This document shows, one piece after another, positions 17,890-27,283 of a stretch of 64,000 bases of DNA. The stretch covers positions 1,216,001 through 1,280,000 of the forward strand of contig CBDCFN010000016.1 in NCBI GenBank assembly GCA_965216315.1, given 5' to 3'. This stretch comes from a bacterium (GTDB taxonomy: Bacteria > UBA10199 > 2-02-FULL-50-16 > JAJFLM01). The notes under the pieces were generated by a model, which was given only the letters and a program-made list of their open reading frames with translations, was not told the origin of the DNA and did no database searches. A program made the position numbers and the translations under genes. The first letter of the stretch is position 1. Each line of letters opens with the position of its first letter.

Positions 17890-18909
17890 ATGTTCTTGAT
17901 GAGAAACGCCAGGCGCAGCGATCTGGGAGATCTGCACAAACTCAGTTATGAACTCAAATCGATGAATCTGCCGAGTCAGAAGGCCGATTTGAGCCGAATG
18001 ATTACGCGTTCGGAGCAGAGTTTTAAGCGTTTCTGGGGCCGTAACAAGGAACATGCGCAGTATGTCTTCGTGATGGAAGATACGGATACCGGCAAGGTCA
18101 TTGGTTCGAGTAAAATATTTGCCCGGCATGGAACCGAGAAAAAGCCCCATTTATACTTTCAGGTAATAGAAGAGAAAGTCAGGTCGAAGACGCTCAATCT
18201 GGAGTTTGATCGGAAGTCGTATCGCTTTAAGTCGGATACGCGGGGGTGTACGGAGGTCGGCGGACTTATTTTGTCGCCGCGTTATCGTGGGCATCCGGAT
18301 CAACTTGGCAAGCAACTCTCATATATAAGATTTTTATTTATGAAGGTGCGTCCGGGAAGCTTCATGAAAAAAGTTATCGCGGAGCTATTGCCACCGCTGC
18401 GTGATGGCCGGTCAAGTCTTTGGGAGTTTTACGGGAAAAAGTTGACGAGACTGGCTTATCACAAGGCGGATCTACTCAGTTATAAGAATAAAGAATTTGT
18501 CATGCGGCTTTTTCCACGCGCGGATCTCATTCATGATGTGCTGCCCGCAGAGGTGCAGGCAGATATGGGGCAAACCGGAGCCGAGTCAACCGCAGCTCGC
18601 GCTCTCTTGTCGAAAATTGGCTTTCGCTATGCCCATCAGGTGGATCCCTTTGATGGGGGACCTCATTATACGGCGGTGCGTGACCAGATTCAGATTTATC
18701 GTCAGGCGAAGCAGCTAAGGTTTGGTGGGATACTCAAATATCCAACAAAGCAGCGTCGAATGATCTTGGTAGAGCGCGGTGCTGAAATCAGATGCTTGAC
18801 AGCCGTCAGTCAGATTCGACATGGTTATATATATATCCAACCGGAGGCAGCCGAGTTGTTGAAATTGCGTCGTGAACAGGTAGTTTTTGCCTATTTAATG
18901 AGGACTTAG
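17890..18909 (+). CDS. astA: Arginine N-succinyltransferase
   Basis: NLPS, YVFVMEDT, GCTEVGGLILSPRYR, GKQLSYIRFLF, VDPFDGGP. Confidence 0.85.
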   Translation: MFLMRNARRSDLGDLHKLSYELKSMNLPSQKADLSRMITRSEQSFKRFWGRNKEHAQYVFVMEDTDTGKVIGSSKIFARHGTEKKPHLYFQVIEEKVRSKTLNLEFDRKSYRFKSDTRGCTEVGGLILSPRYRGHPDQLGKQLSYIRFLFMKVRPGSFMKKVIAELLPPLRDGRSSLWEFYGKKLTRLAYHKADLLSYKNKEFVMRLFPRADLIHDVLPAEVQADMGQTGAESTAARALLSKIGFRYAHQVDPFDGGPHYTAVRDQIQIYRQAKQLRFGGILKYPTKQRRMILVERGAEIRCLTAVSQIRHGYIYIQPEAAELLKLRREQVVFAYLMRT

Positions 18910-20349
18910 ATGTTGAACTTCAAGGGAGCTTACGTCAACGGGCGTTTCGCCAAGGCGAAGGAGAAAGGTCTCCAAGAGAAGCGGGATCCCGGTAATTTGG
19001 ATCAGGTTATTGGCGAGTGGACGGCGACGCCTGAGCAGGTGGATCCGGCGGTTGAGGCCGCGGGCAAGGCTAAGAAACAATGGTTTCGCTTGCCGGCGAA
19101 AGAACGCTATCAGCACTTGATTGGGCTGCAGAGCGTTTTCAAGGAACGGGCCGGTGAGTTGGCGCAGATAATCTCGGCCGAGATGGGGAAGATATTACCG
19201 GAATCCGAAGCGGAGGTTGCGGCTTCGATCAGAAAAATTGATGTGACCCTGTCGGAAGGCATGAAGCTGGTTGAGGAGACGCGGCAGGGTTCGAATGGAT
19301 ACTCTACGCGCTATCATCCGCGCGGCGTGCTGGCCATACTAGGCCCTTTCAACTTCCCCTTGCATTTACCCAACGGACAATGGGTGGCGGCCTTGGCGAC
19401 CGGTAATACGGTTATATTTAAGCCATCGGAGTTAACACCTTTTACGGGTCAGTTGATCGCCGAATGTTTTCACCAGGCGGGTTTTCCTCCGGGAGTTTTT
19501 AATTTGGTTCAAGGTGCCGGCGATGTGGGGGCCCAGCTAGCGAAGCACGCTGATATCCAAGGAGTGATTTTTGTCGGTTCTGATGCAACGGGACATAAGA
19601 TTGAGCATGCCATCAGTGCTGATTTGAATAAGATTTGTGTGCTGGAGATGGGAGGCAAAAATGCCGCGATTATTTTTGAAGATGCTCCCATTGACAAGGC
19701 GTTGACGACGTGTACGGCTAGTGCGCTCAGCACGACGGGACAGCGCTGTAATGCCTTGAGTCGCATTATTATCCACGAAGATCTGGTGACGGACTTTACA
19801 GTGGAGCTTTCCAGTCGCGTTCTTGAATGGATATCAGGACATTACACGGATAAAGCGGCGATGATGGGGCCTTTGGTATCAGAGGCCGCGTTAAAGAAAT
19901 TTCTTAAATATCAAGAGAAGGCCAGCAAAGAAGGTGCGCGGAGTGTGCTCAAAGGGCGCGCGATCAGCAAACATCCTCCCGGTTATTATGTCTTGCCGTC
20001 GATACATCGTATCGATTGGCAGGGACCTGGTAAGGATAGAAAAGGCTATCGCTATGACGAAATATTCGGTCCCGATATCGCCATTTATACCTTTAAGAAA
20101 ACCGCGGAGGCCATCGCGATGCATAACGATACCCGTTATGGTCTGGTGGCCTCTGTATTTACTAAGAAGAAAAACGTTTTTGAGAGGATGTACCGTGAGT
20201 TAGAAGTGGGAGATTTGCGCTGGAATAAACCGACGATTACGGCCTCGGGCATGCTGCCTTTTGGGGGCGTCAAGGCGAGTGGCAACAATCATCCCGCCGG
20301 TCTCTTCAGTCCGCTTTATTGCACCTACCCGGTCGCCATACAAATGTAG
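18910..20349 (+). CDS. astD: Aldehyde dehydrogenase, succinylglutamate-semialdehyde dehydrogenase-like
   Basis: GPFNFPLHLPNG, KPSELTP, LEMGGKN, GQRC, PFGGVKASGNNHP; directly follows astA. Confidence 0.8.
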   Translation: MLNFKGAYVNGRFAKAKEKGLQEKRDPGNLDQVIGEWTATPEQVDPAVEAAGKAKKQWFRLPAKERYQHLIGLQSVFKERAGELAQIISAEMGKILPESEAEVAASIRKIDVTLSEGMKLVEETRQGSNGYSTRYHPRGVLAILGPFNFPLHLPNGQWVAALATGNTVIFKPSELTPFTGQLIAECFHQAGFPPGVFNLVQGAGDVGAQLAKHADIQGVIFVGSDATGHKIEHAISADLNKICVLEMGGKNAAIIFEDAPIDKALTTCTASALSTTGQRCNALSRIIIHEDLVTDFTVELSSRVLEWISGHYTDKAAMMGPLVSEAALKKFLKYQEKASKEGARSVLKGRAISKHPPGYYVLPSIHRIDWQGPGKDRKGYRYDEIFGPDIAIYTFKKTAEAIAMHNDTRYGLVASVFTKKKNVFERMYRELEVGDLRWNKPTITASGMLPFGGVKASGNNHPAGLFSPLYCTYPVAIQM

Positions 20350-20364
20350 TATATTTAATCACTA

Positions 20365-20441
20365 GGCGGGTCCTGCCGCATACGCAATCCTTTTGCTGCG
20401 TCTAAAAACGACGTTCAAAAGGATCGCTCGCGTCACCCGCC
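20365..20441. repeat. Long imperfect intergenic hairpin
   Basis: Nested inverted repeats GGCGGGT/ACCCGCC, ATCCTTTTG/CAAAAGGAT and CGTC/GACG. Confidence 0.5.
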
Positions 20442-20456
20442 GCAAGTGAGAAATAT

Positions 20457-21386
20457 ATGAAAATCTCTCGACACGTATTAATGGGGGATCCCGCCTGTTT
20501 TCAGATCAAGCACGGTGTCAACCCGCACACGCGCAATCGCTGGGGAATGCGAAAAAAGGTCGATCGCGTCAAGGCACGCGAGCAATGGCAGGGAATGAAA
20601 GAGACTCTGGAGTCTTACGGGATCAAGGTCCATGTGATTCCGCCGCATGAAGAGCTGCCGGGCTTGGTATTCCCGGCGAACGCCGGCTTTGTCCCTCAGC
20701 TGGATGAAGCGCTTGCTTTAAGTGATCGCGATTTCGTATTGGCGCGCTTGAATCAGGCGCGTCGCCAGGAAGCTATCGTCAATGAAGTGGTGGCGCGGGA
20801 ACTTGGAATGAACTTACATCATGTGTTGGGTCAGTTTGAGGGGCAGGCCGATCTCATTCAGTGGGGCGATCGCTATCTTTTTACCCACGGCCGCCTCATA
20901 ACGCCTCATTTTACGCTTCGTCTCGGGTTTCCACCGTGGCGTCGGGTCTACGGCTTCCGGTCGGACGTGAAGGCGTTGGGAGAAATCGAGCGCTGGATTC
21001 CTATAAAGCGGACGCTTAGCTTAGAACTCTGCGATGAACGTTTTTATCACGGCGATACCATACTTTATTCGATTGGCCCCTCGAGAGAGTATTTGCTGCT
21101 TTATCGGAAGGGACTCATGCAGGCGTCGCTGCGAAAGTTAGGCGATGATCAGCATATTATCCCTTTAAGTGATGCCGATGCGCTGGCCTATGCGGCGAAT
21201 TCATTTCAGGTGATGGTGCAAGGGCAATGTACTCTCTTTATGCCGCTGGGCATCTCGGCCGCCTTACGCCGGGAGATAGAAGCTCGGGAGGTTCAGGTCG
21301 TGACGCTTGATGTCTCCGAGTTTCTCGAGAAGGGGGGTGGATCGGTTAAGTGTATGGTCGGCGATCTCGGTCAGGCCCCTCCTTAG
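20457..21386 (+). CDS. Pentein (amidinotransferase/DDAH/arginine dihydrolase) superfamily enzyme
   Basis: NPH, LVFPANAG, FEGQAD, FYHGDT, C-terminal KGGGSVKC catalytic Cys. Confidence 0.8.
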   Translation: MKISRHVLMGDPACFQIKHGVNPHTRNRWGMRKKVDRVKAREQWQGMKETLESYGIKVHVIPPHEELPGLVFPANAGFVPQLDEALALSDRDFVLARLNQARRQEAIVNEVVARELGMNLHHVLGQFEGQADLIQWGDRYLFTHGRLITPHFTLRLGFPPWRRVYGFRSDVKALGEIERWIPIKRTLSLELCDERFYHGDTILYSIGPSREYLLLYRKGLMQASLRKLGDDQHIIPLSDADALAYAANSFQVMVQGQCTLFMPLGISAALRREIEAREVQVVTLDVSEFLEKGGGSVKCMVGDLGQAPP

Positions 21387-21406: not shown

Positions 21407-21433
21407 CTATCTTCAGGGTGATATGCTAACCCT

Positions 21434-24400
21434 GTGAAAAAGAAGCTGATCTCGGATCGATATGAAATTATTAAAGAACTCGGACGAGGTGCCGGTGGAG
21501 TCACCTATCTGGTTCAGGATCGAAATGATCCCGATTTACCCAAAGCGCTTAAAATCATTAACGCTGAGTCCCAGGACGAAGCGCTCCGCCTTGCCTTCCG
21601 TCAAGAATGTCAACTGCTCAAAAAACTTTCTCACCCGAATATTGCCTGCGTTCTTGAGAGTGGAGCCGACGAAGACAGTCTTTATTACACGACAGAATAT
21701 GTGGAGGGCGAGGATTTTGTGAGCGCCTGCCGGGAGCGCGACTGGAATGCGGTCTTCTCCCTGATCGTACAGGCCTGTTGGGGGCTGGACTATCTCCATA
21801 AACAAAAAGTCATCCACCGTGATCTGAAACCGGCTAACATACTCGTCGGAAAAATTCACGAATCCGACAAGACGCTGGAGATGGAAAGCGTCCGGCTTAA
21901 GATAATTGATTTTGGATTGGCACTGAGTGCGGCGCAGCAGAGTCATGCGATGGAGACGGCGGGGACGCTCGGTTATATGGCACCCGAAGTCCTTGCGGGC
22001 GATGCCTATGACGGTCGAGCGGATCTCTACTCCTTAGGGGTTGTTCTCTACGAAATGGCTTTAGGCCGTTTACCGACGACAAAAACAACTAACTTTTCCG
22101 AATATCTGCAGGCTTTGCATCAACATCGAGTCGATATGGCGCCGCTACACGATAGTGATGAAATTCCCGGGGGGATTGTCAGTATTATCGAAAATTTAGT
22201 GATTGCTGACCCCGAAAAACGTCTTAAATCGGCACGCGAGGTCATCAAGTTACTCAATAAACGTGAGGATGAGTCATTTACCCTGACAGTTCCATCAAGC
22301 GAGACGAAGGGAAGAAGTCAGGCAAAGCGTAAGAAGGCTCCGATAAAACGTGCCACATCAAGTCAAACCGCATCAGCCCAAGAGAAAGTTGATAGTTTGC
22401 TGTCAATGATAAGGAGTGGGCGGCAACAAGAGGCTCGGGATTACATAGAAAACGAATTAGGATCGTTTGATGCGGAAAAAGATGCCGGTTTGGTCGAAGA
22501 ATTCTATGGGGCTGCGGGCCACGTTCTGACGGAGCAGGGTCAGTTTGATCAAGTGCATGATCTTATCAATAAAATGGAGAAACATCCGGCGCTTCGCGGT
22601 AAGGTTTCTATCGAGCAATTGATACTAGCCGTCCAATTGGCTTACCGGGAAGGGAAATTGGATGAGGCGAAGAAAAAACTGGGCGCAGTGACAGCCAAAC
22701 AGCTCAAAAAAGCTTCGTTGCAACAACAGACGCGCGTCGAGACGTATCGAGGTCTCGTATTGCAGGGCTTAAAGGAATTTGATGAGGCCGTGAAGGCTTT
22801 TGAGCGTGGGGCGGCGATGGCGGCTGAAAGTGGGCGCAAAGATCATCAGGTCGGCTTGCTCGCGAATGCCGCAACGCTTTATTACGATCAGGGTCAGTGG
22901 GGTCAAGCTTATGAGATGTATTGCCGGGCCGAAAAACTCGCCCGTGCCGGCACGAATACGCCTCTGCTCGGGACGATCCTCAATAACTTAGGCAATCTTT
23001 ACTTGTATTTCGGGCGTCAAAAGCAGGCCGAGCAGGCCCTGGAAGAATCTTTGCATATTGCGGAGGAACAGGGCCTTTCCGAATTGATCGCTTATAATCG
23101 ATACCTGCTCTCAACCGGAGAAATCGGGAAGGGCAATAGAGAAAAGGTTGCCGATTACTTAAGGCAGGCCTTGGAGTATGCCCGTGGTCTCGGGGGGTCT
23201 CAGGCGCTTTTTCAGGCGCGTCTTGCCGAGGCGTATTTTCATTTGTCGCAAGATGATTTCGAGGCCTGCAACGAGGACCTCCGTCTCTTGAGGGAGTGTG
23301 CCGGTGAAACGGGGCAGGCGGCATATGACTTGCAAGTAGACTGGTTTGAGGCGCGGTTTCGCATTCAGGAAAATAGTTTTGCTGATTATCCTGTGGCGGA
23401 TTGGTTGCAAGCCGTTCACGATGATGTGGTGAAACGACAGCTCCCTAACAGTCTGTGGCAGGTACTCAAGGATAAAGGCGATTTAGCGAAGGCGTTGGGG
23501 AATGAAGCTGAGGCTCAACAGGATTACCAGCGGGCCTTGGAAGTCATCGAAGAGCTAAAAGCGCGCGTGCCGAAAAAGTATCAGGAGAGCTTTATGCGAG
23601 ATCGCAAAAAAGAAAAAATACGTCGCTCACTTGAATTATTAAAGCCGTCAGAAACGGCAGAACCTGCCGAACCTGCGGATAAGAGTGATGTGACTTTTTC
23701 CTTTAAACGTTGGGCCGAGATTAATCGACGTCTCCTTATGCAATACGATATCGACCAACTGCTGGAGGAAATACTTGATACGGCATTGCGCATTACCGAT
23801 GCTGAACGTGGTTTTGTTATCCTTTCGGACGAACAGAACCTTGATATTAGAGCGGCACGCAATTTTGATAAACAAACGTTGAATCCGGATGCGGAGGAAT
23901 TCTCCTTTACGATCGCGCGCGATGTTATGCGTAAGGGTGAGAGCACAGTCAGCTTAGACGCGGCAGCCGATGAACGCTTTGCTGAGGCGCGCTCGGTGCA
24001 TTCACTGAAAATTCGTTCCGTGCTGTGCGTCCCGCTTCATTTAGGTCAGCGGACGGTGGGGCTCATTTATCTCGATAACCGTTATCGCCCGGGTGTTTTG
24101 ATCAATGAACATATCGAATTGATCGAAGCCTTGGCGGACCAAGCCTCCTTGACGCTGGAGCATGCGCGTCTGCATCGGGAGAATAAGGAGAAGATCGAGG
24201 AGCTGCAGTTAAACAAGCAACTCATCGAAAAGCTCAATGAACGCCTTGAAAAAGATCTGAGTGATACATCAGCCCATTTGGATGCCATGCGCGAAAGTAT
24301 GAAACGCGAACACGAAGAGATTAGCCTGCGCTATAGCTATGACAATATTATTGGAAAGAGCCCGGGGATTAAGAAAGTTCTTTCCGTGATCGACCGTGTC

Positions 24401-25348: not shown

Positions 25349-25822
25349 GTGAGCCATTTATTGTCGAAAATAGCGTTAGTTATTATTTTAAGCCCCTTCT
25401 TATTAGCACCTGGTGCCTGTCCCAGTGAACAGGCCGCGGTAGAGGACTCAGTCAATATTCAAGAGAGTGATGTTGCGACGGAACAAAACGTATCCGCAGG
25501 GACACGTCCGCCGAGTACGGAAGCGGCCGGGCCGGTCACTCCGGTTGATCCGGATCTGCAGGAGGCCTTAGAGGAGTGGCAGGAAGAGCAAGAAGAGAAG
25601 CAACGGCAACGCGCTGAGGCGATAAAAGAACAAGAGACAGTGGTTCGAGGGGATATAGAGGGCGTCAGGCTTCCGGATGACGCCGCGCCGATACGTCGTG
25701 AAGAGAGTGAGAAGTGTCCTATTGAGTATGAAGGGGAACCAACCGAGATCTCATGCGAGCTCTTGCGTCGTCTCCGCGAAGCGATGCAGCACAAGGCGAT
25801 CCCGATAATTGACTCGAATTGA
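25349..25822 (+). CDS. Acidic putative lipoprotein (paralog 1)
   Basis: Hydrophobic N-terminus ending LLAPGAC; C-terminal CPIEYEGEPTEISC. Confidence 0.6.
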   Translation: MSHLLSKIALVIILSPFLLAPGACPSEQAAVEDSVNIQESDVATEQNVSAGTRPPSTEAAGPVTPVDPDLQEALEEWQEEQEEKQRQRAEAIKEQETVVRGDIEGVRLPDDAAPIRREESEKCPIEYEGEPTEISCELLRRLREAMQHKAIPIIDSN

Positions 25823-25827
25823 TACAT
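25809..25827. promoter_or_regulatory. Degenerate enhancer (UAS) copy
   Basis: TTGACTCG-AAT-TGATACAT, centred 104 bp upstream of the GG of the promoter at 25921. Confidence 0.45.
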
Positions 25828-25920
25828 ATTGGCCCCTCGATCCCTTTATTTCCCCATTCATCTATCCCCGTATTTAGATAATTATTTAATAATTTCAAAT
25901 AGATAAATAATAAGGCTTAT

Positions 25921-25936
25921 TGGCACGCCATTTGCT
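25921..25936 (+). promoter_or_regulatory. Sigma54 -24/-12 promoter P1
   Basis: TGGCAC-GCCAT-TTGCT with GG-N10-GC spacing, preceded by an AT-rich IHF-like tract. Confidence 0.85.
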
Positions 25937-25946
25937 CTACTCTAGG

Positions 25947-26025
25947 GCAGCACACTACACACACTACGCACCCAACACACGGGACGAATGGCTGGCGGCG
26001 CAACGCGGCCAGCCATTCGCTCCTA
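25947..26025 (+). ncRNA. Candidate sigma54-dependent small RNA 1
   Basis: No ORF after P1; CA-rich unstructured 5' part, then a 12-bp perfect stem CGAATGGCTGGC/GCCAGCCATTCG. Ends are approximate. Confidence 0.55.
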
Positions 26026-26107
26026 TCCTCTCCAGTCATAGCCGCATAATCTAGTTCACTCGCTATGCGAATTCATGCGAATTGGCGCGCTAAGAGTCCG
26101 GTCAATT

Positions 26108-26128
26108 TATGTATCGATCCGATACATA
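26108..26128. promoter_or_regulatory. Perfect palindromic enhancer (UAS)
   Basis: TATGTATCG-ATC-CGATACATA, centred 103 bp upstream of the GG of P2. Confidence 0.7.
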
Positions 26129-26191
26129 CTGGGGTTTTTCAGCGGCGATGTTATCAAGTTCGTGCGAAAGGAATGATAAAATATTAAATAA

Positions 26192-26204
26192 TATCAATAA
26201 GTTA
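26192..26204 (+). promoter_or_regulatory. IHF site
   Basis: TATCAA-TAAG-TTA matches WATCAA-N4-TTR and lies between the UAS and P2. Confidence 0.6.
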
Positions 26205-26219
26205 TAAAATTTCGGCTAT

Positions 26220-26235
26220 TGGCATGGCTCTTGCT
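26220..26235 (+). promoter_or_regulatory. Sigma54 -24/-12 promoter P2
   Basis: TGGCAT-GGCTC-TTGCT with GG-N10-GC spacing. Confidence 0.82.
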
Positions 26236-26245
26236 CTCTAGGGAG

Positions 26246-26323
26246 GGACAATACGCTTTCATGCCCCTATGAAAGGTCGGATGGCTGGTGGCAATGAGGT
26301 CGCCAGCCATTTCGACCTCTTTC
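26246..26323 (+). ncRNA. Candidate sigma54-dependent small RNA 2 (or structured leader)
   Basis: Long hairpin GAAAGGTCGG-ATGGCTGGTGGC...GTCGCCAGCCAT-TTCGACCTCTTTC with G-U pairs; shares the ATGGCTGG/CCAGCCAT core with sRNA 1. Confidence 0.5.
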
Positions 26324-26368
26324 GGTGAGACGCCGCGAGGGGATAATGGTATAGTAGTGAGTAGACCC

Positions 26369-26854
26369 ATGAAGTTATCTAAAATTCAGTTATTATGCTT
26401 CAGTATCATCCTCCTCTCCGGTTCAGGGCTTGTCGCTTGTAAAGGTCAGTTTTCAGCGTTGCAAGGAACCGGCGTTGAAGTCGATGAGGGCGCGGATACC
26501 TCCATCGAAGGTGACGTCGGTGATGACACCGGTTTAGGCGGTGGGCCCGGCATTGATGGAGGAACCGATTCCTTTATTCCCGAAGACCCGGCCAGTGAAG
26601 GGACACCGGAACGTCCGGGTGCAACCAATCCTTCGATTCCGCGCGATCATGGCGACTTTGCGCCGTATATCCCACAAGATATGCCTAACGAGATGCGCAT
26701 GGCTGATCCGGATAGCGGGAAGGACGATGATGCACCCGCACCGGACAATGAAGAAGAGCCCGTCAACTGCGTGATTAAGTTTGGCGAAGACGGCGAGGAG
26801 ATTCCCTGTCCGCGCTTTAATGAAGTGAAGCAGTATCAGGAATTTACCGAATAA
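26369..26854 (+). CDS. Acidic putative lipoprotein (paralog 2)
   Basis: Start placed at ATG 26369 (MKLSKIQ); lipobox LVAC-KGQFSAL; EGTPERPG; C-terminal CVIKFGEDGEEIPC. Confidence 0.7.
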   Translation: MKLSKIQLLCFSIILLSGSGLVACKGQFSALQGTGVEVDEGADTSIEGDVGDDTGLGGGPGIDGGTDSFIPEDPASEGTPERPGATNPSIPRDHGDFAPYIPQDMPNEMRMADPDSGKDDDAPAPDNEEEPVNCVIKFGEDGEEIPCPRFNEVKQYQEFTE

Positions 26855-26863
26855 TGCAGTCCG

Positions 26864-27283
26864 ATGACGTTTCTCTTTTCAAAACACAAACTGCTTGTTG
26901 CGATTTCACTCTGCGCGATGAGTTTGCTCGCCTGCCGCGGTGAATTTAGTGCGCTGACTGATGGACTGCAGGAGGCTGGAGACGGGACAACTTTAGGCGA
27001 TTCGGAAGTTGTGTCGGATAATCCGGCGCAACATGAAGGCACTCCTGAGCGACCCGGCATGCCGAATCCGCTCCCGCTTACCGATGATGAACATGATCTT
27101 CCCGAGCGTCCCGAGCATAACGCCCCAACGGAAGCGCTGGATGATACGAAGTACGACGATGAGGGGGAAGAACCGGAGCCGAGTGAAGAGGAAGAGTGTT
27201 TTCTGATGATTGACGGTGTTGAGACCAAGATTCCCTGTGAAGAATCGGCGCAACACATGCAACGCCCGGTGCTTTCAAAGTGA
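26864..27283 (+). CDS. Acidic putative lipoprotein (paralog 3)
   Basis: Lipobox LLAC-RGEFSAL; EGTPERPG; C-terminal CFLMIDGVETKIPC. Confidence 0.7.
   Translation: MTFLFSKHKLLVAISLCAMSLLACRGEFSALTDGLQEAGDGTTLGDSEVVSDNPAQHEGTPERPGMPNPLPLTDDEHDLPERPEHNAPTEALDDTKYDDEGEEPEPSEEEECFLMIDGVETKIPCEESAQHMQRPVLSK

Follow-up and report, generated by a model that had tools for sequence, protein, structure and literature searches.

What is produced from two tandem sigma-54 promoters that are followed by strong hairpins and not by a coding frame? This question is raised by a 64,000-nt stretch of a bacterial chromosome (G000:C16:1216001-1280000, hereafter the window) from a 2.96-Mb genome that is 98% complete. 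The two units lie between paralogous lipoprotein-like open reading frames (ORFs), downstream of a gene for a Ser/Thr kinase fused to a sigma-54 activator, or bacterial enhancer-binding protein (bEBP). Our best reading, based on sequence analysis, is that a sigma-54 programme would partly turn down a FliA-like programme linked to type III secretion, via base-pairing small RNAs (sRNAs) that operate without Hfq. Four public runs are listed, none of them of RNA; their contigs, possibly the source of the stretch, agree with it at zero differences, and those of two runs cover it in a single piece. Gene starts (2465 genes in the genome) were taken from a simple script, so that some will be in error.

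Two sigma-54 units and their predicted RNAs

The two units are 299 bp apart, 71% alike across 59 nt in a repeat search, and each contains in the same order an operator, an IHF-like site, a sigma-54 -24/-12 box, a short single strand and a strong hairpin (Table 1). An earlier reading made from the letters alone (the sequence-only reading) had described two tandem units of about 300 bp with enhancer, IHF-like site, promoter and hairpin, and all of these were found where it had placed them. Both promoters rank near the top of the 99 sigma-54 sites scored in the genome. The IHF-like sites begin 29 bp upstream of the GG in both units, again as claimed, and were scored with the IHF consensus WATCAANNNNTTR; the site of unit 2 is perfect and that of unit 1 has two mismatches. 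Because sigma-54 boxes with IHF sites are widespread in this genome, the promoters alone are ordinary, and the hairpins and the operator are what stands out.

The enhancer-like palindromes end 94 nt (unit 1) and 93 nt (unit 2) upstream of the -24 box. With at most two mismatches, the operator TGTATCG-N4-GATACA has 34 matches in the genome, 14 of them intergenic, and lies within 220 nt of 6 of the 99 scored sigma-54 sites. Three matches fall in the window, one at the activator promoter and one upstream of each unit. bEBPs usually have an operator on their own promoter; since the operator of the units is common to the promoter of the adjacent kinase-TPR-GAF-bEBP gene, the encoded protein is the likely activator of both. 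Its HRDLK, DFG, APE and GAFTGA motifs are all intact, and a Pfam search found kinase, TPR, GAF, AAA+ and helix-turn-helix (HTH) domains and no receiver domain. The genome encodes both rpoN and rho, and the full sigma-54/bEBP set is present, from -24/-12 box, upstream palindrome and IHF site to rpoN and a GAFTGA activator.

The remaining operator-linked sigma-54 sites precede a lipoprotein gene and orphan genes at C16:1295085, 1297824 and 1303799. In this latter region (G000:C16:1295085-1308001), the operator lies 61-62 nt upstream of each of three sigma-54 promoters, which drive orphan genes with products of 145, 1279 and 1400 aa; no Pfam family was found for these (the 1279-aa product was scanned over 725 aa). 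These genes are probably the protein arm of the activator's regulon.

The hairpins of units 1 and 2 have predicted energies of -36.6 kcal/mol (z -6.0) and -38.5 kcal/mol (z -3.6), and 0/200 shuffles were as stable as either. For unit 1 the z-score is stronger on the plus strand (-6.0 versus -2.6 on the other strand), and for unit 2 the strands are similar (-3.6 versus -3.9). The CA-rich stretch of the first predicted RNA (U1), which the sequence-only reading took to be single-stranded, is indeed mostly unpaired in the prediction. CACAC-like words occur three to four times in this strand, and the second RNA (U2) is without such repeats. Also present are the competing hairpin reported for unit 2 (CTTTCAT/ATGAAAG, 26256-26275) and the -10-like site reported for the downstream ORF. 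Unit 1 had been described as devoid of ORFs, which is correct: ORFs starting between the units have at most 40 codons and none has a ribosome site, for which reason small peptides encoded in the units were rejected. The hairpin core ATGGCTGG..CCAGCCAT occurs at just these two places in the genome. The idea of a genome-wide repetitive extragenic palindrome or other dispersed repeat, which would have undone the earlier proposal, was therefore rejected; blastn gave no other copy, and a covariance model recovered only its three input sequences. The module had been called undescribed, and an Rfam search of the region gave nothing at gathering or E-value thresholds (best E 2.2).

The units fit the general layout of a trans-acting base-pairing sRNA, with an unpaired seed, a 3' hairpin and no coding frame. 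It is quite probable that discrete RNAs accumulate from both units; that such RNAs act by base-pairing is a likely, somewhat less assured, prediction.

Table 1. Features of the window around the two units (positions in the window).
Feature	Position	Strand	Basis or remark
Palindromic operator TGTATCG-N4-ATACA just 5' of activator gene, 30 nt before its start codon	21388..21404	.	likely autoregulatory site
Fused Ser/Thr kinase - TPR - GAF - sigma-54 AAA+ - Fis HTH activator, 1292 aa	21434..25312	+	Pfam, motifs
Lipoprotein-like ORF 1, distantly paralogous to ORFs 2 and 3	25349..25822	+	
Unit 1 enhancer, 2 mismatches to operator, overlaps end of ORF 1	25810..25826	.	
Unit 1 IHF-like site TTTCAAATAGATA, 2 mismatches	25893..25905	+	
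Unit 1 sigma-54 -24/-12 promoter TGGCACGCCATTTGC	25921..25935	+	score 24.3
Predicted small RNA U1, ~80 nt, both ends putative	25946..26027	+	
U1 CA-rich single strand, candidate seed	25951..25980	+	
U1 seed core CUACGCACC, complement of GGUGCGUAG	25964-25972	+	
U1 3' hairpin, then C-rich tail, no U tract	25981..26024	+	
Unit 2 enhancer (operator palindrome)	26110..26126	.	
Unit 2 IHF consensus site TATCAATAAGTTA, perfect WATCAANNNNTTR	26192..26204	+	
Unit 2 sigma-54 -24/-12 promoter TGGCATGGCTCTTGC	26220..26234	+	score 24.1
Predicted small RNA U2, ~78 nt, main hairpin 26274-26318	26245..26323	+	
U2 15-nt stretch complementary to FGE-sulfatase-domain gene start	26259..26273	+	
Putative extended -10-like site TGGTATAGT, 13 nt upstream of ORF 2 ATG	26347..26355	+	sequence
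Lipoprotein-like ORF 2, no clear Shine-Dalgarno	26369..26854	+	
Lipoprotein-like ORF 3, paralogue of ORF 2	26864..27283	+	

The three lipoprotein-like ORFs matched no Pfam or NCBIfam family. The frame of ORF 2 stays open back to 26288, and its signal peptide starts at 26369. A TG-n-TATGCT -10-like site lies 6 nt upstream of the GTG of the activator gene, which has no Shine-Dalgarno sequence (window 21419-21436); the gene is therefore likely leaderless, as predicted from these signals. The start regions of its orthologues in two other genomes (G036 and G043) look alike, with a -10-like site and no Shine-Dalgarno. Directly 5' of the activator gene (window 17890-21386) are AstA-family, aldehyde dehydrogenase-like and amidinotransferase-like genes.

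Related modules in the genome and in another family

The genome contains several modules of the kind seen in the window, and it has nine kinase-bEBP fusion genes plus one split pair. Of the 10 sigma-54 sites that lie no more than 1.1 kb from a kinase-bEBP gene, 6 are followed by a hairpin of -27 kcal/mol or lower, versus 1/89 other sites, a cut chosen after seeing the data (at -20 the counts are 6/10 versus 8/89, p 4e-4); with U1 and U2 left out, 4/8 adjacent sites still have such a hairpin (p 1e-4). Beside the closest activator paralogue (on C15, 60% identical) is a divergent RNA with GCACCCAAC and a GGCUGG/CCAGCC stem. When U1, U2 and this RNA are aligned, 6/21 consensus pairs are altered on both sides; stem changes are compensatory or of the G-U kind, whereas loops and seeds have diverged. 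The covariance model built from the three sequences found no further copies in the genome.

Further sigma-54 hairpin units were observed near kinase-bEBP genes at C15:131555 (plus), C15:300434 (plus), C15:12573 (minus), C16:1072463 (plus) and C16:2021666 (plus), and four of these five carry GCACCC. As a class-wide word after sigma-54 boxes, GCACCC was abandoned, its matches in 42/93 genomes often resembling chance or tRNA; a unit at C16:505321 was also dropped, as an ORF begins 13 nt on. In G027:C4 (L127:9462, minus strand), a sigma-54 box, an unpaired GCCCCAACCCUUC and a terminator-like hairpin lie 5' of another kinase-bEBP gene, and CCCAACCC is common to this unit and the C15 paralogue RNA. 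At L077:11181 and L080:11493 (both minus), UUUCCUCAUCCUC in sigma-54 leaders pairs with a downstream GAGGAGGAAA-like stretch around a GC-rich hairpin, and these leaders could possibly occlude the ribosome site.

An RNA is also predicted beside the orthologous activator in another family. The alignment covers one metagenome locus and three genomes belonging to one genus. In it, a sigma-54 box 5' of the activator gene is followed by 17 invariant unpaired nucleotides (UGCUAUCUUCCCCCUUC), then by a stem of 15 bp and a U tract. All 60 cells of this stem pair, 7/15 pairs change on both sides, and the covariation score was reached by 0/500 shuffles, four related sequences being few for such a test. 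In G036, G043 and G049, sites related to the operator (GATACA/TGTATC) are found upstream of the RNA. The predicted RNA has the usual seed-plus-terminator layout of a base-pairing sRNA. A covariance model detects no sequence likeness of this RNA to U1 or U2, and the link to them is one of position and design. The kinase-bEBP/sRNA module put forward in the sequence-only reading thus gained the support of a shared operator, a genome-wide link between activators and hairpins and a covarying RNA beside an orthologous activator, its RNAs being predicted ones; the covariance analysis of orthologous loci gave a covarying stem in the other genus and no sequence likeness to U1/U2.

Could the units instead be 5' leaders, with transcripts running into the lipoprotein genes, the hairpin serving as an attenuator or a processing/stability element and unit 1 being a stranded duplicate? 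This alternative survives best of those considered, and we regard it as unlikely. U2 ends about 45 nt before ORF 2, the competing hairpin overlaps its stem base, the hairpins have no U tract, and two paralogous units in this genome precede ORFs with a Shine-Dalgarno 130-144 nt on. In the genus g27 (L029:9060-9160, L032, L036, L018, L121), a sigma-54-like box (TTGT) at the same position after the orthologous activator drives a long hairpin (about 75 nt, with a conserved unpaired G-rich bulge and 8/27 compensatory pairs) directly before a Shine-Dalgarno and a lipoprotein gene. From its sequence this unit looks more like a leader and therefore supports the leader alternative. However, unit 1 has no ORF to lead, ORF 2 is without a Shine-Dalgarno and has its own -10-like site, and the RNA of the other genus has a terminal U tract, the activator gene 3' of it having its own TTGCAC/TACAAT boxes in 3/4 sequences. 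Leaders would also leave the complementarity to distant mRNAs (see below) without reason. Unit 2 may be a leader of the lipoprotein genes.

It is improbable that the units are decaying by-products of a local duplication, a promoter with a terminator-like hairpin and no RNA function. The confinement of the units to one genome, the tandem paralogy of the adjoining lipoprotein genes and the strong hairpins commonly formed by terminators would agree with this, but the promoters are near the top of the 99 sites, operator and IHF spacing are kept in both units, the stems vary by compensatory or G-U changes, unlike the diverging loops and seeds, and another family has conserved this design.

Candidate targets of U1, U2 and the orthologous RNA

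A FliA-like sigma factor (C16:350583; 133 bits, below the 190 cut-off), predicted to read CAACT/GCCGATAA promoters, is encoded inside a type III secretion cluster at G000:C16:339083-360514, in which SctV scores above its cut-off and FlhA below. A two-box FliA-like promoter pattern (-35 box (G/A)CAACT) was found at 68 genes and at 26 in the reverse-complement control, so that a good part of the 68 must be false. Some of the leaders of these genes complement the CA-rich seed of U1. GGTGYG occurs in 12/68 of them versus 76/2397 others (10/56 when counted by family), in 11/68 at positions off the Shine-Dalgarno, and its reverse complement in 0/68. U1 complements make up 5/10 of the most enriched 6-mers in these leaders and 8-9 of the top 30 (p 0.001-0.004 versus dinucleotide shuffles), and U1 also beats random intergenic pieces. 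The complement of the U1 core, GGTGCGTA, is present in 8 upstream regions versus 0 for a same-strand control, and GGTGYG is clustered (3 genes with 3 copies, 0.05 expected) in leaders carrying GCCGATAA. Ten of 18 sites lie inside -22..+12 of the start, and the best U1 duplex, of 14 bp, spans the start of C16:738472; the leaders of C16:1825329, 259135 and 2173814 are further candidate targets of U1. The combination of a promoter and GGTGYG 6-36 nt apart was counted 11 times here and no more than 5 times in any one of 92 relatives, counts that are not normalised for promoter number. The paralogous RNAs at C16:2021666, C16:1072463 and C15:12573 match FliA-like leaders similarly but more weakly. 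A separate candidate sRNA away from any kinase-bEBP gene (L072, G000:C16:1864402, minus), with a sigma-54 box, a CA-rich strand of 35 nt and a bidirectional terminator that faces tRNA-Leu, also complements FliA-like leader words.

A 15-nt stretch of U2 is complementary at every position to the AGGGG ribosome site and the AUG of a gene with an FGE-sulfatase domain (G000:C16:318968), the single predicted target of U2.

In the other family, the seed of the orthologous RNA points to a family of putative target genes. In G036, perfect complements of its 13-nt core are found only in the RNA gene and in two leaders, 31-32 nt before the ATG, with predicted duplexes of -32 and -34 kcal/mol over the Shine-Dalgarno. 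A near match lies in a third leader, and a homologous gene in G043 (38% identical over 196 aa) also has a seed site. Leaders of this gene family pair at -20 or better in 4/23 cases versus 0/26 other starts (30 loci fetched, 23 scorable), and many of its genes have CAACT..CCGA(T/A)A (FliA-like) promoters in the upstream DNA. In G036, G043 and G049 (L198-L227) the proteins share an N-terminal domain of about 190 aa, have varied C-termini and 35-66 matches per genome, and resemble polymorphic secreted effectors. In G049, 6/15 near-matches were fetched and none is a family leader. The word GGGGRAG after FliA-like promoters, tried as a case of seed-target co-variation, is not special to the other genus, so that the search showed no such co-variation there and gave only 0 occurrences in the present genome.

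Several observations weigh against the reading as base-pairing sRNAs with FliA-like targets, besides the hindsight in the hairpin cut and the unnormalised promoter counts mentioned above. Neither the U1 nor the U2 hairpin has a clear U tract. Among 92 other genomes of the class no sequence homologue of U1 or U2 was found apart from a single weak hit (E 0.005). G001, a genome of the same family, has the orthologous activator and one lipoprotein gene with no unit after them (its contig begins at the activator, the upstream side lying outside). U2 does not match FliA-like leaders (p 0.5), and its 15-nt match has p 0.002 alone and about 0.02 over eight RNAs. In the other family only 4/23 leaders pair, 2 of the 4 being those that had led to the family. 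GGTGYG was first noticed in the target list of U1, so that the enrichment tests are not blind and held-out promoters are the fair test. There the signal is weaker: 9/106 versus 72/2373 (p 0.007), or 4/67 (p 0.17) with a stricter cut, and the reverse complement is also raised (5/106, p 0.02). Over all start regions, U1 beats 14/14 shuffles for the best and 5th-best target and not for the 20th, and genome-wide k-mer tests of U1 are not significant; the support for U1 from the genome-wide target ranking is marginal. Target prediction with the CA-rich segment, an avenue opened by the sequence-only reading, thus gave an enrichment in FliA-like leaders together with a weak genome-wide and held-out signal. 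From this evidence the chances that U1 acts on FliA-like leaders are about even; at most a minority of the FliA-like mRNAs would be its targets, and the match, though suggestive, is not settled.

Other candidate targets were set aside. GGAGGTGYG ribosome sites are enriched here (12/30 versus 24/268) but occur in 80/93 genomes and are not a private target mark. Feed-forward pairing of U1 or U2 with same-operator genes or the activator gave unremarkable ranks (best 48/2465), and sigma-54-led genes, with 3-5 in the top 50, were equalled by shuffles.

The sequence-only reading had left open whether the CA-rich part is a seed or a protein sponge. The complementarity to FliA-like leaders argues for the seed. 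In the 98%-complete genome Hfq was not found (PF17209, 0 matches; control rings in 5/14), nor were CsrA, ProQ and KhpB, which weakens the sponge. We therefore give little probability to RNAs that titrate an RNA-binding protein via the CA-rich strand, like CrcZ, CsrB or GlmY. The repeated CACAC-like words of U1 would suit such decoys, and sigma-54 decoys beside their activators are known, as for GlmY in the accessible text of one report (PMC6075780). However, besides the proteins not found (RapZ and other binders were not searched for), U2 is without the repeats, and a decoy should share words with mRNAs, yet the leaders carry the complement and CRCACC is in 0/68 of them. Least probable is that the RNAs are real with other targets and GGTGYG is a signal of its own (an extended Shine-Dalgarno spacer, a protein site or a DNA element), as could be suggested by GGAGGTGYG before ATG in 80/93 class genomes, including families without this activator subfamily, and by the modest held-out enrichment, since the word is off the Shine-Dalgarno in 11/68 leaders, on one strand only, and commonest in the genome having U1.

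We lean slightly towards two sigma-54-dependent RNAs of about 80 nt that would be switched by the activator and act by base-pairing, U1 blocking translation of some mRNAs of the FliA-like sigma. On sensing a signal through its kinase, TPR or GAF domains, the activator, bound at the operators, would open both promoters, with IHF presumably bending or looping the DNA; it may in addition act as a repressor of its own gene. In each RNA the seed would stand free 5' of a hairpin that guards the 3' end, which has no U tract in a genome where Rho is present. U1 would lower the translation of some FliA-like mRNAs by pairing across their ribosome sites and 5' ends, either unassisted or with a chaperone other than Hfq, CsrA, ProQ and KhpB. 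As the paralogous RNAs keep the hairpin while their seeds have diverged, one signal could reach two target sets.

Relation to known sRNA systems and significance

The Vibrio Qrr/LuxO and myxobacterial Pxr systems, cited as precedents in the sequence-only reading, hold as likenesses in working only: the module works like Pxr and Qrr yet fails membership of both. U1 and U2 resemble Qrr as several paralogous sigma-54 RNAs under a bEBP with predicted pairing at ribosome sites. Qrr sRNAs share one seed and need Hfq, whereas here the seeds diverge, Hfq was not found and Rfam gave no match. Also unlike Qrr, pairing of U1 and U2 to the activator's own mRNA is not predicted (ranks 1842 and 1783 of 2465), and the activator, at 286 bits, stays below the cut-off of 800 of the LuxO model. 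In Vibrio, Qrr RNAs are repressors that pair at ribosome sites and bring about a switch of lifestyle programmes (PMC13501541, accessible text).

As in Myxococcus and Cystobacter Pxr, an sRNA gene with its own sigma-54 promoter would lie 3' of a sigma-54 activator gene. In Cystobacter, Pxr occurs as tandem paralogues, each with its own sigma-54 promoter (PMC5568312); the Pxr host is without Hfq, and the 3' stem of Pxr is required for accumulation (PMC5568312, PMC5684412, PMC11928866). Pxr is also processed into a long and a short form. In contrast to U1/U2, with an unpaired 5' strand and one long hairpin in about 80 nt, Pxr has 108 nt and three stem-loops, and it is driven by an NtrC-like response regulator instead of a one-component Ser/Thr kinase-TPR-GAF activator. 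U1/U2 further differ in having no Rfam match and in belonging to several dispersed modules.

Links between RpoN and FliA regulons through sRNAs pairing at ribosome sites are described in Campylobacter jejuni, where FlmE (CJnc230), cut from flgE mRNA, raises FliA genes through flgM and the FliA-made FlmR (CJnc170) is suggested to lower RpoN genes (PMC11187230, accessible text). Here, unlike these, an RpoN-made RNA would directly lower FliA-like genes, and the sigma factor lies in a type III secretion cluster. In the attack phase of Bdellovibrio bacteriovorus, a FliA-type sigma with a CCGATA -10 box reads many non-flagellar genes, a likeness to what is predicted here; its -35 box is TTAAG as opposed to (G/A)CAACT here, and the accessible text describes no sigma-54 sRNA opposing this regulon (PMC3627812). 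The tandem layout is thus not new, given Cystobacter Pxr, and sRNAs already connect RpoN and FliA in Campylobacter, though in other directions. The new features are an activator that is a one-component kinase, a set of dispersed modules whose seeds diverge, and a FliA-like, secretion-linked regulon that is predicted to be damped directly; a literature search, which largely did not reach subscription titles, found nothing on the module.

For an uncultured lineage, this is the first concrete post-transcriptional circuit that we could find, predicted to link about 100 sigma-54 promoters to a FliA-like, type III secretion-tied regulon. Named RNA-mRNA pairs are predicted, and a putative case of sRNAs without Hfq, ProQ, CsrA or KhpB is added. 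Since the direct targets of Pxr are still unsettled in the accessible text of PMC11928866, a Pxr-like module whose seeds can be read offers a useful comparison. Tentatively, and with odds somewhat against it, a lineage-wide chaperone-free layer may be envisaged, in which each giant kinase-TPR-GAF activator would have its own sigma-54 RNA and the seeds would have co-evolved with FliA-like leaders: a CA-rich seed with GGUGCG leaders here, a UCUUCCCC seed with GGGGAAGAUAGC leaders in the other family. If true, this direct sigma-54-to-sigma-28 off-switch for candidate secreted effectors would be a likely lifestyle switch.
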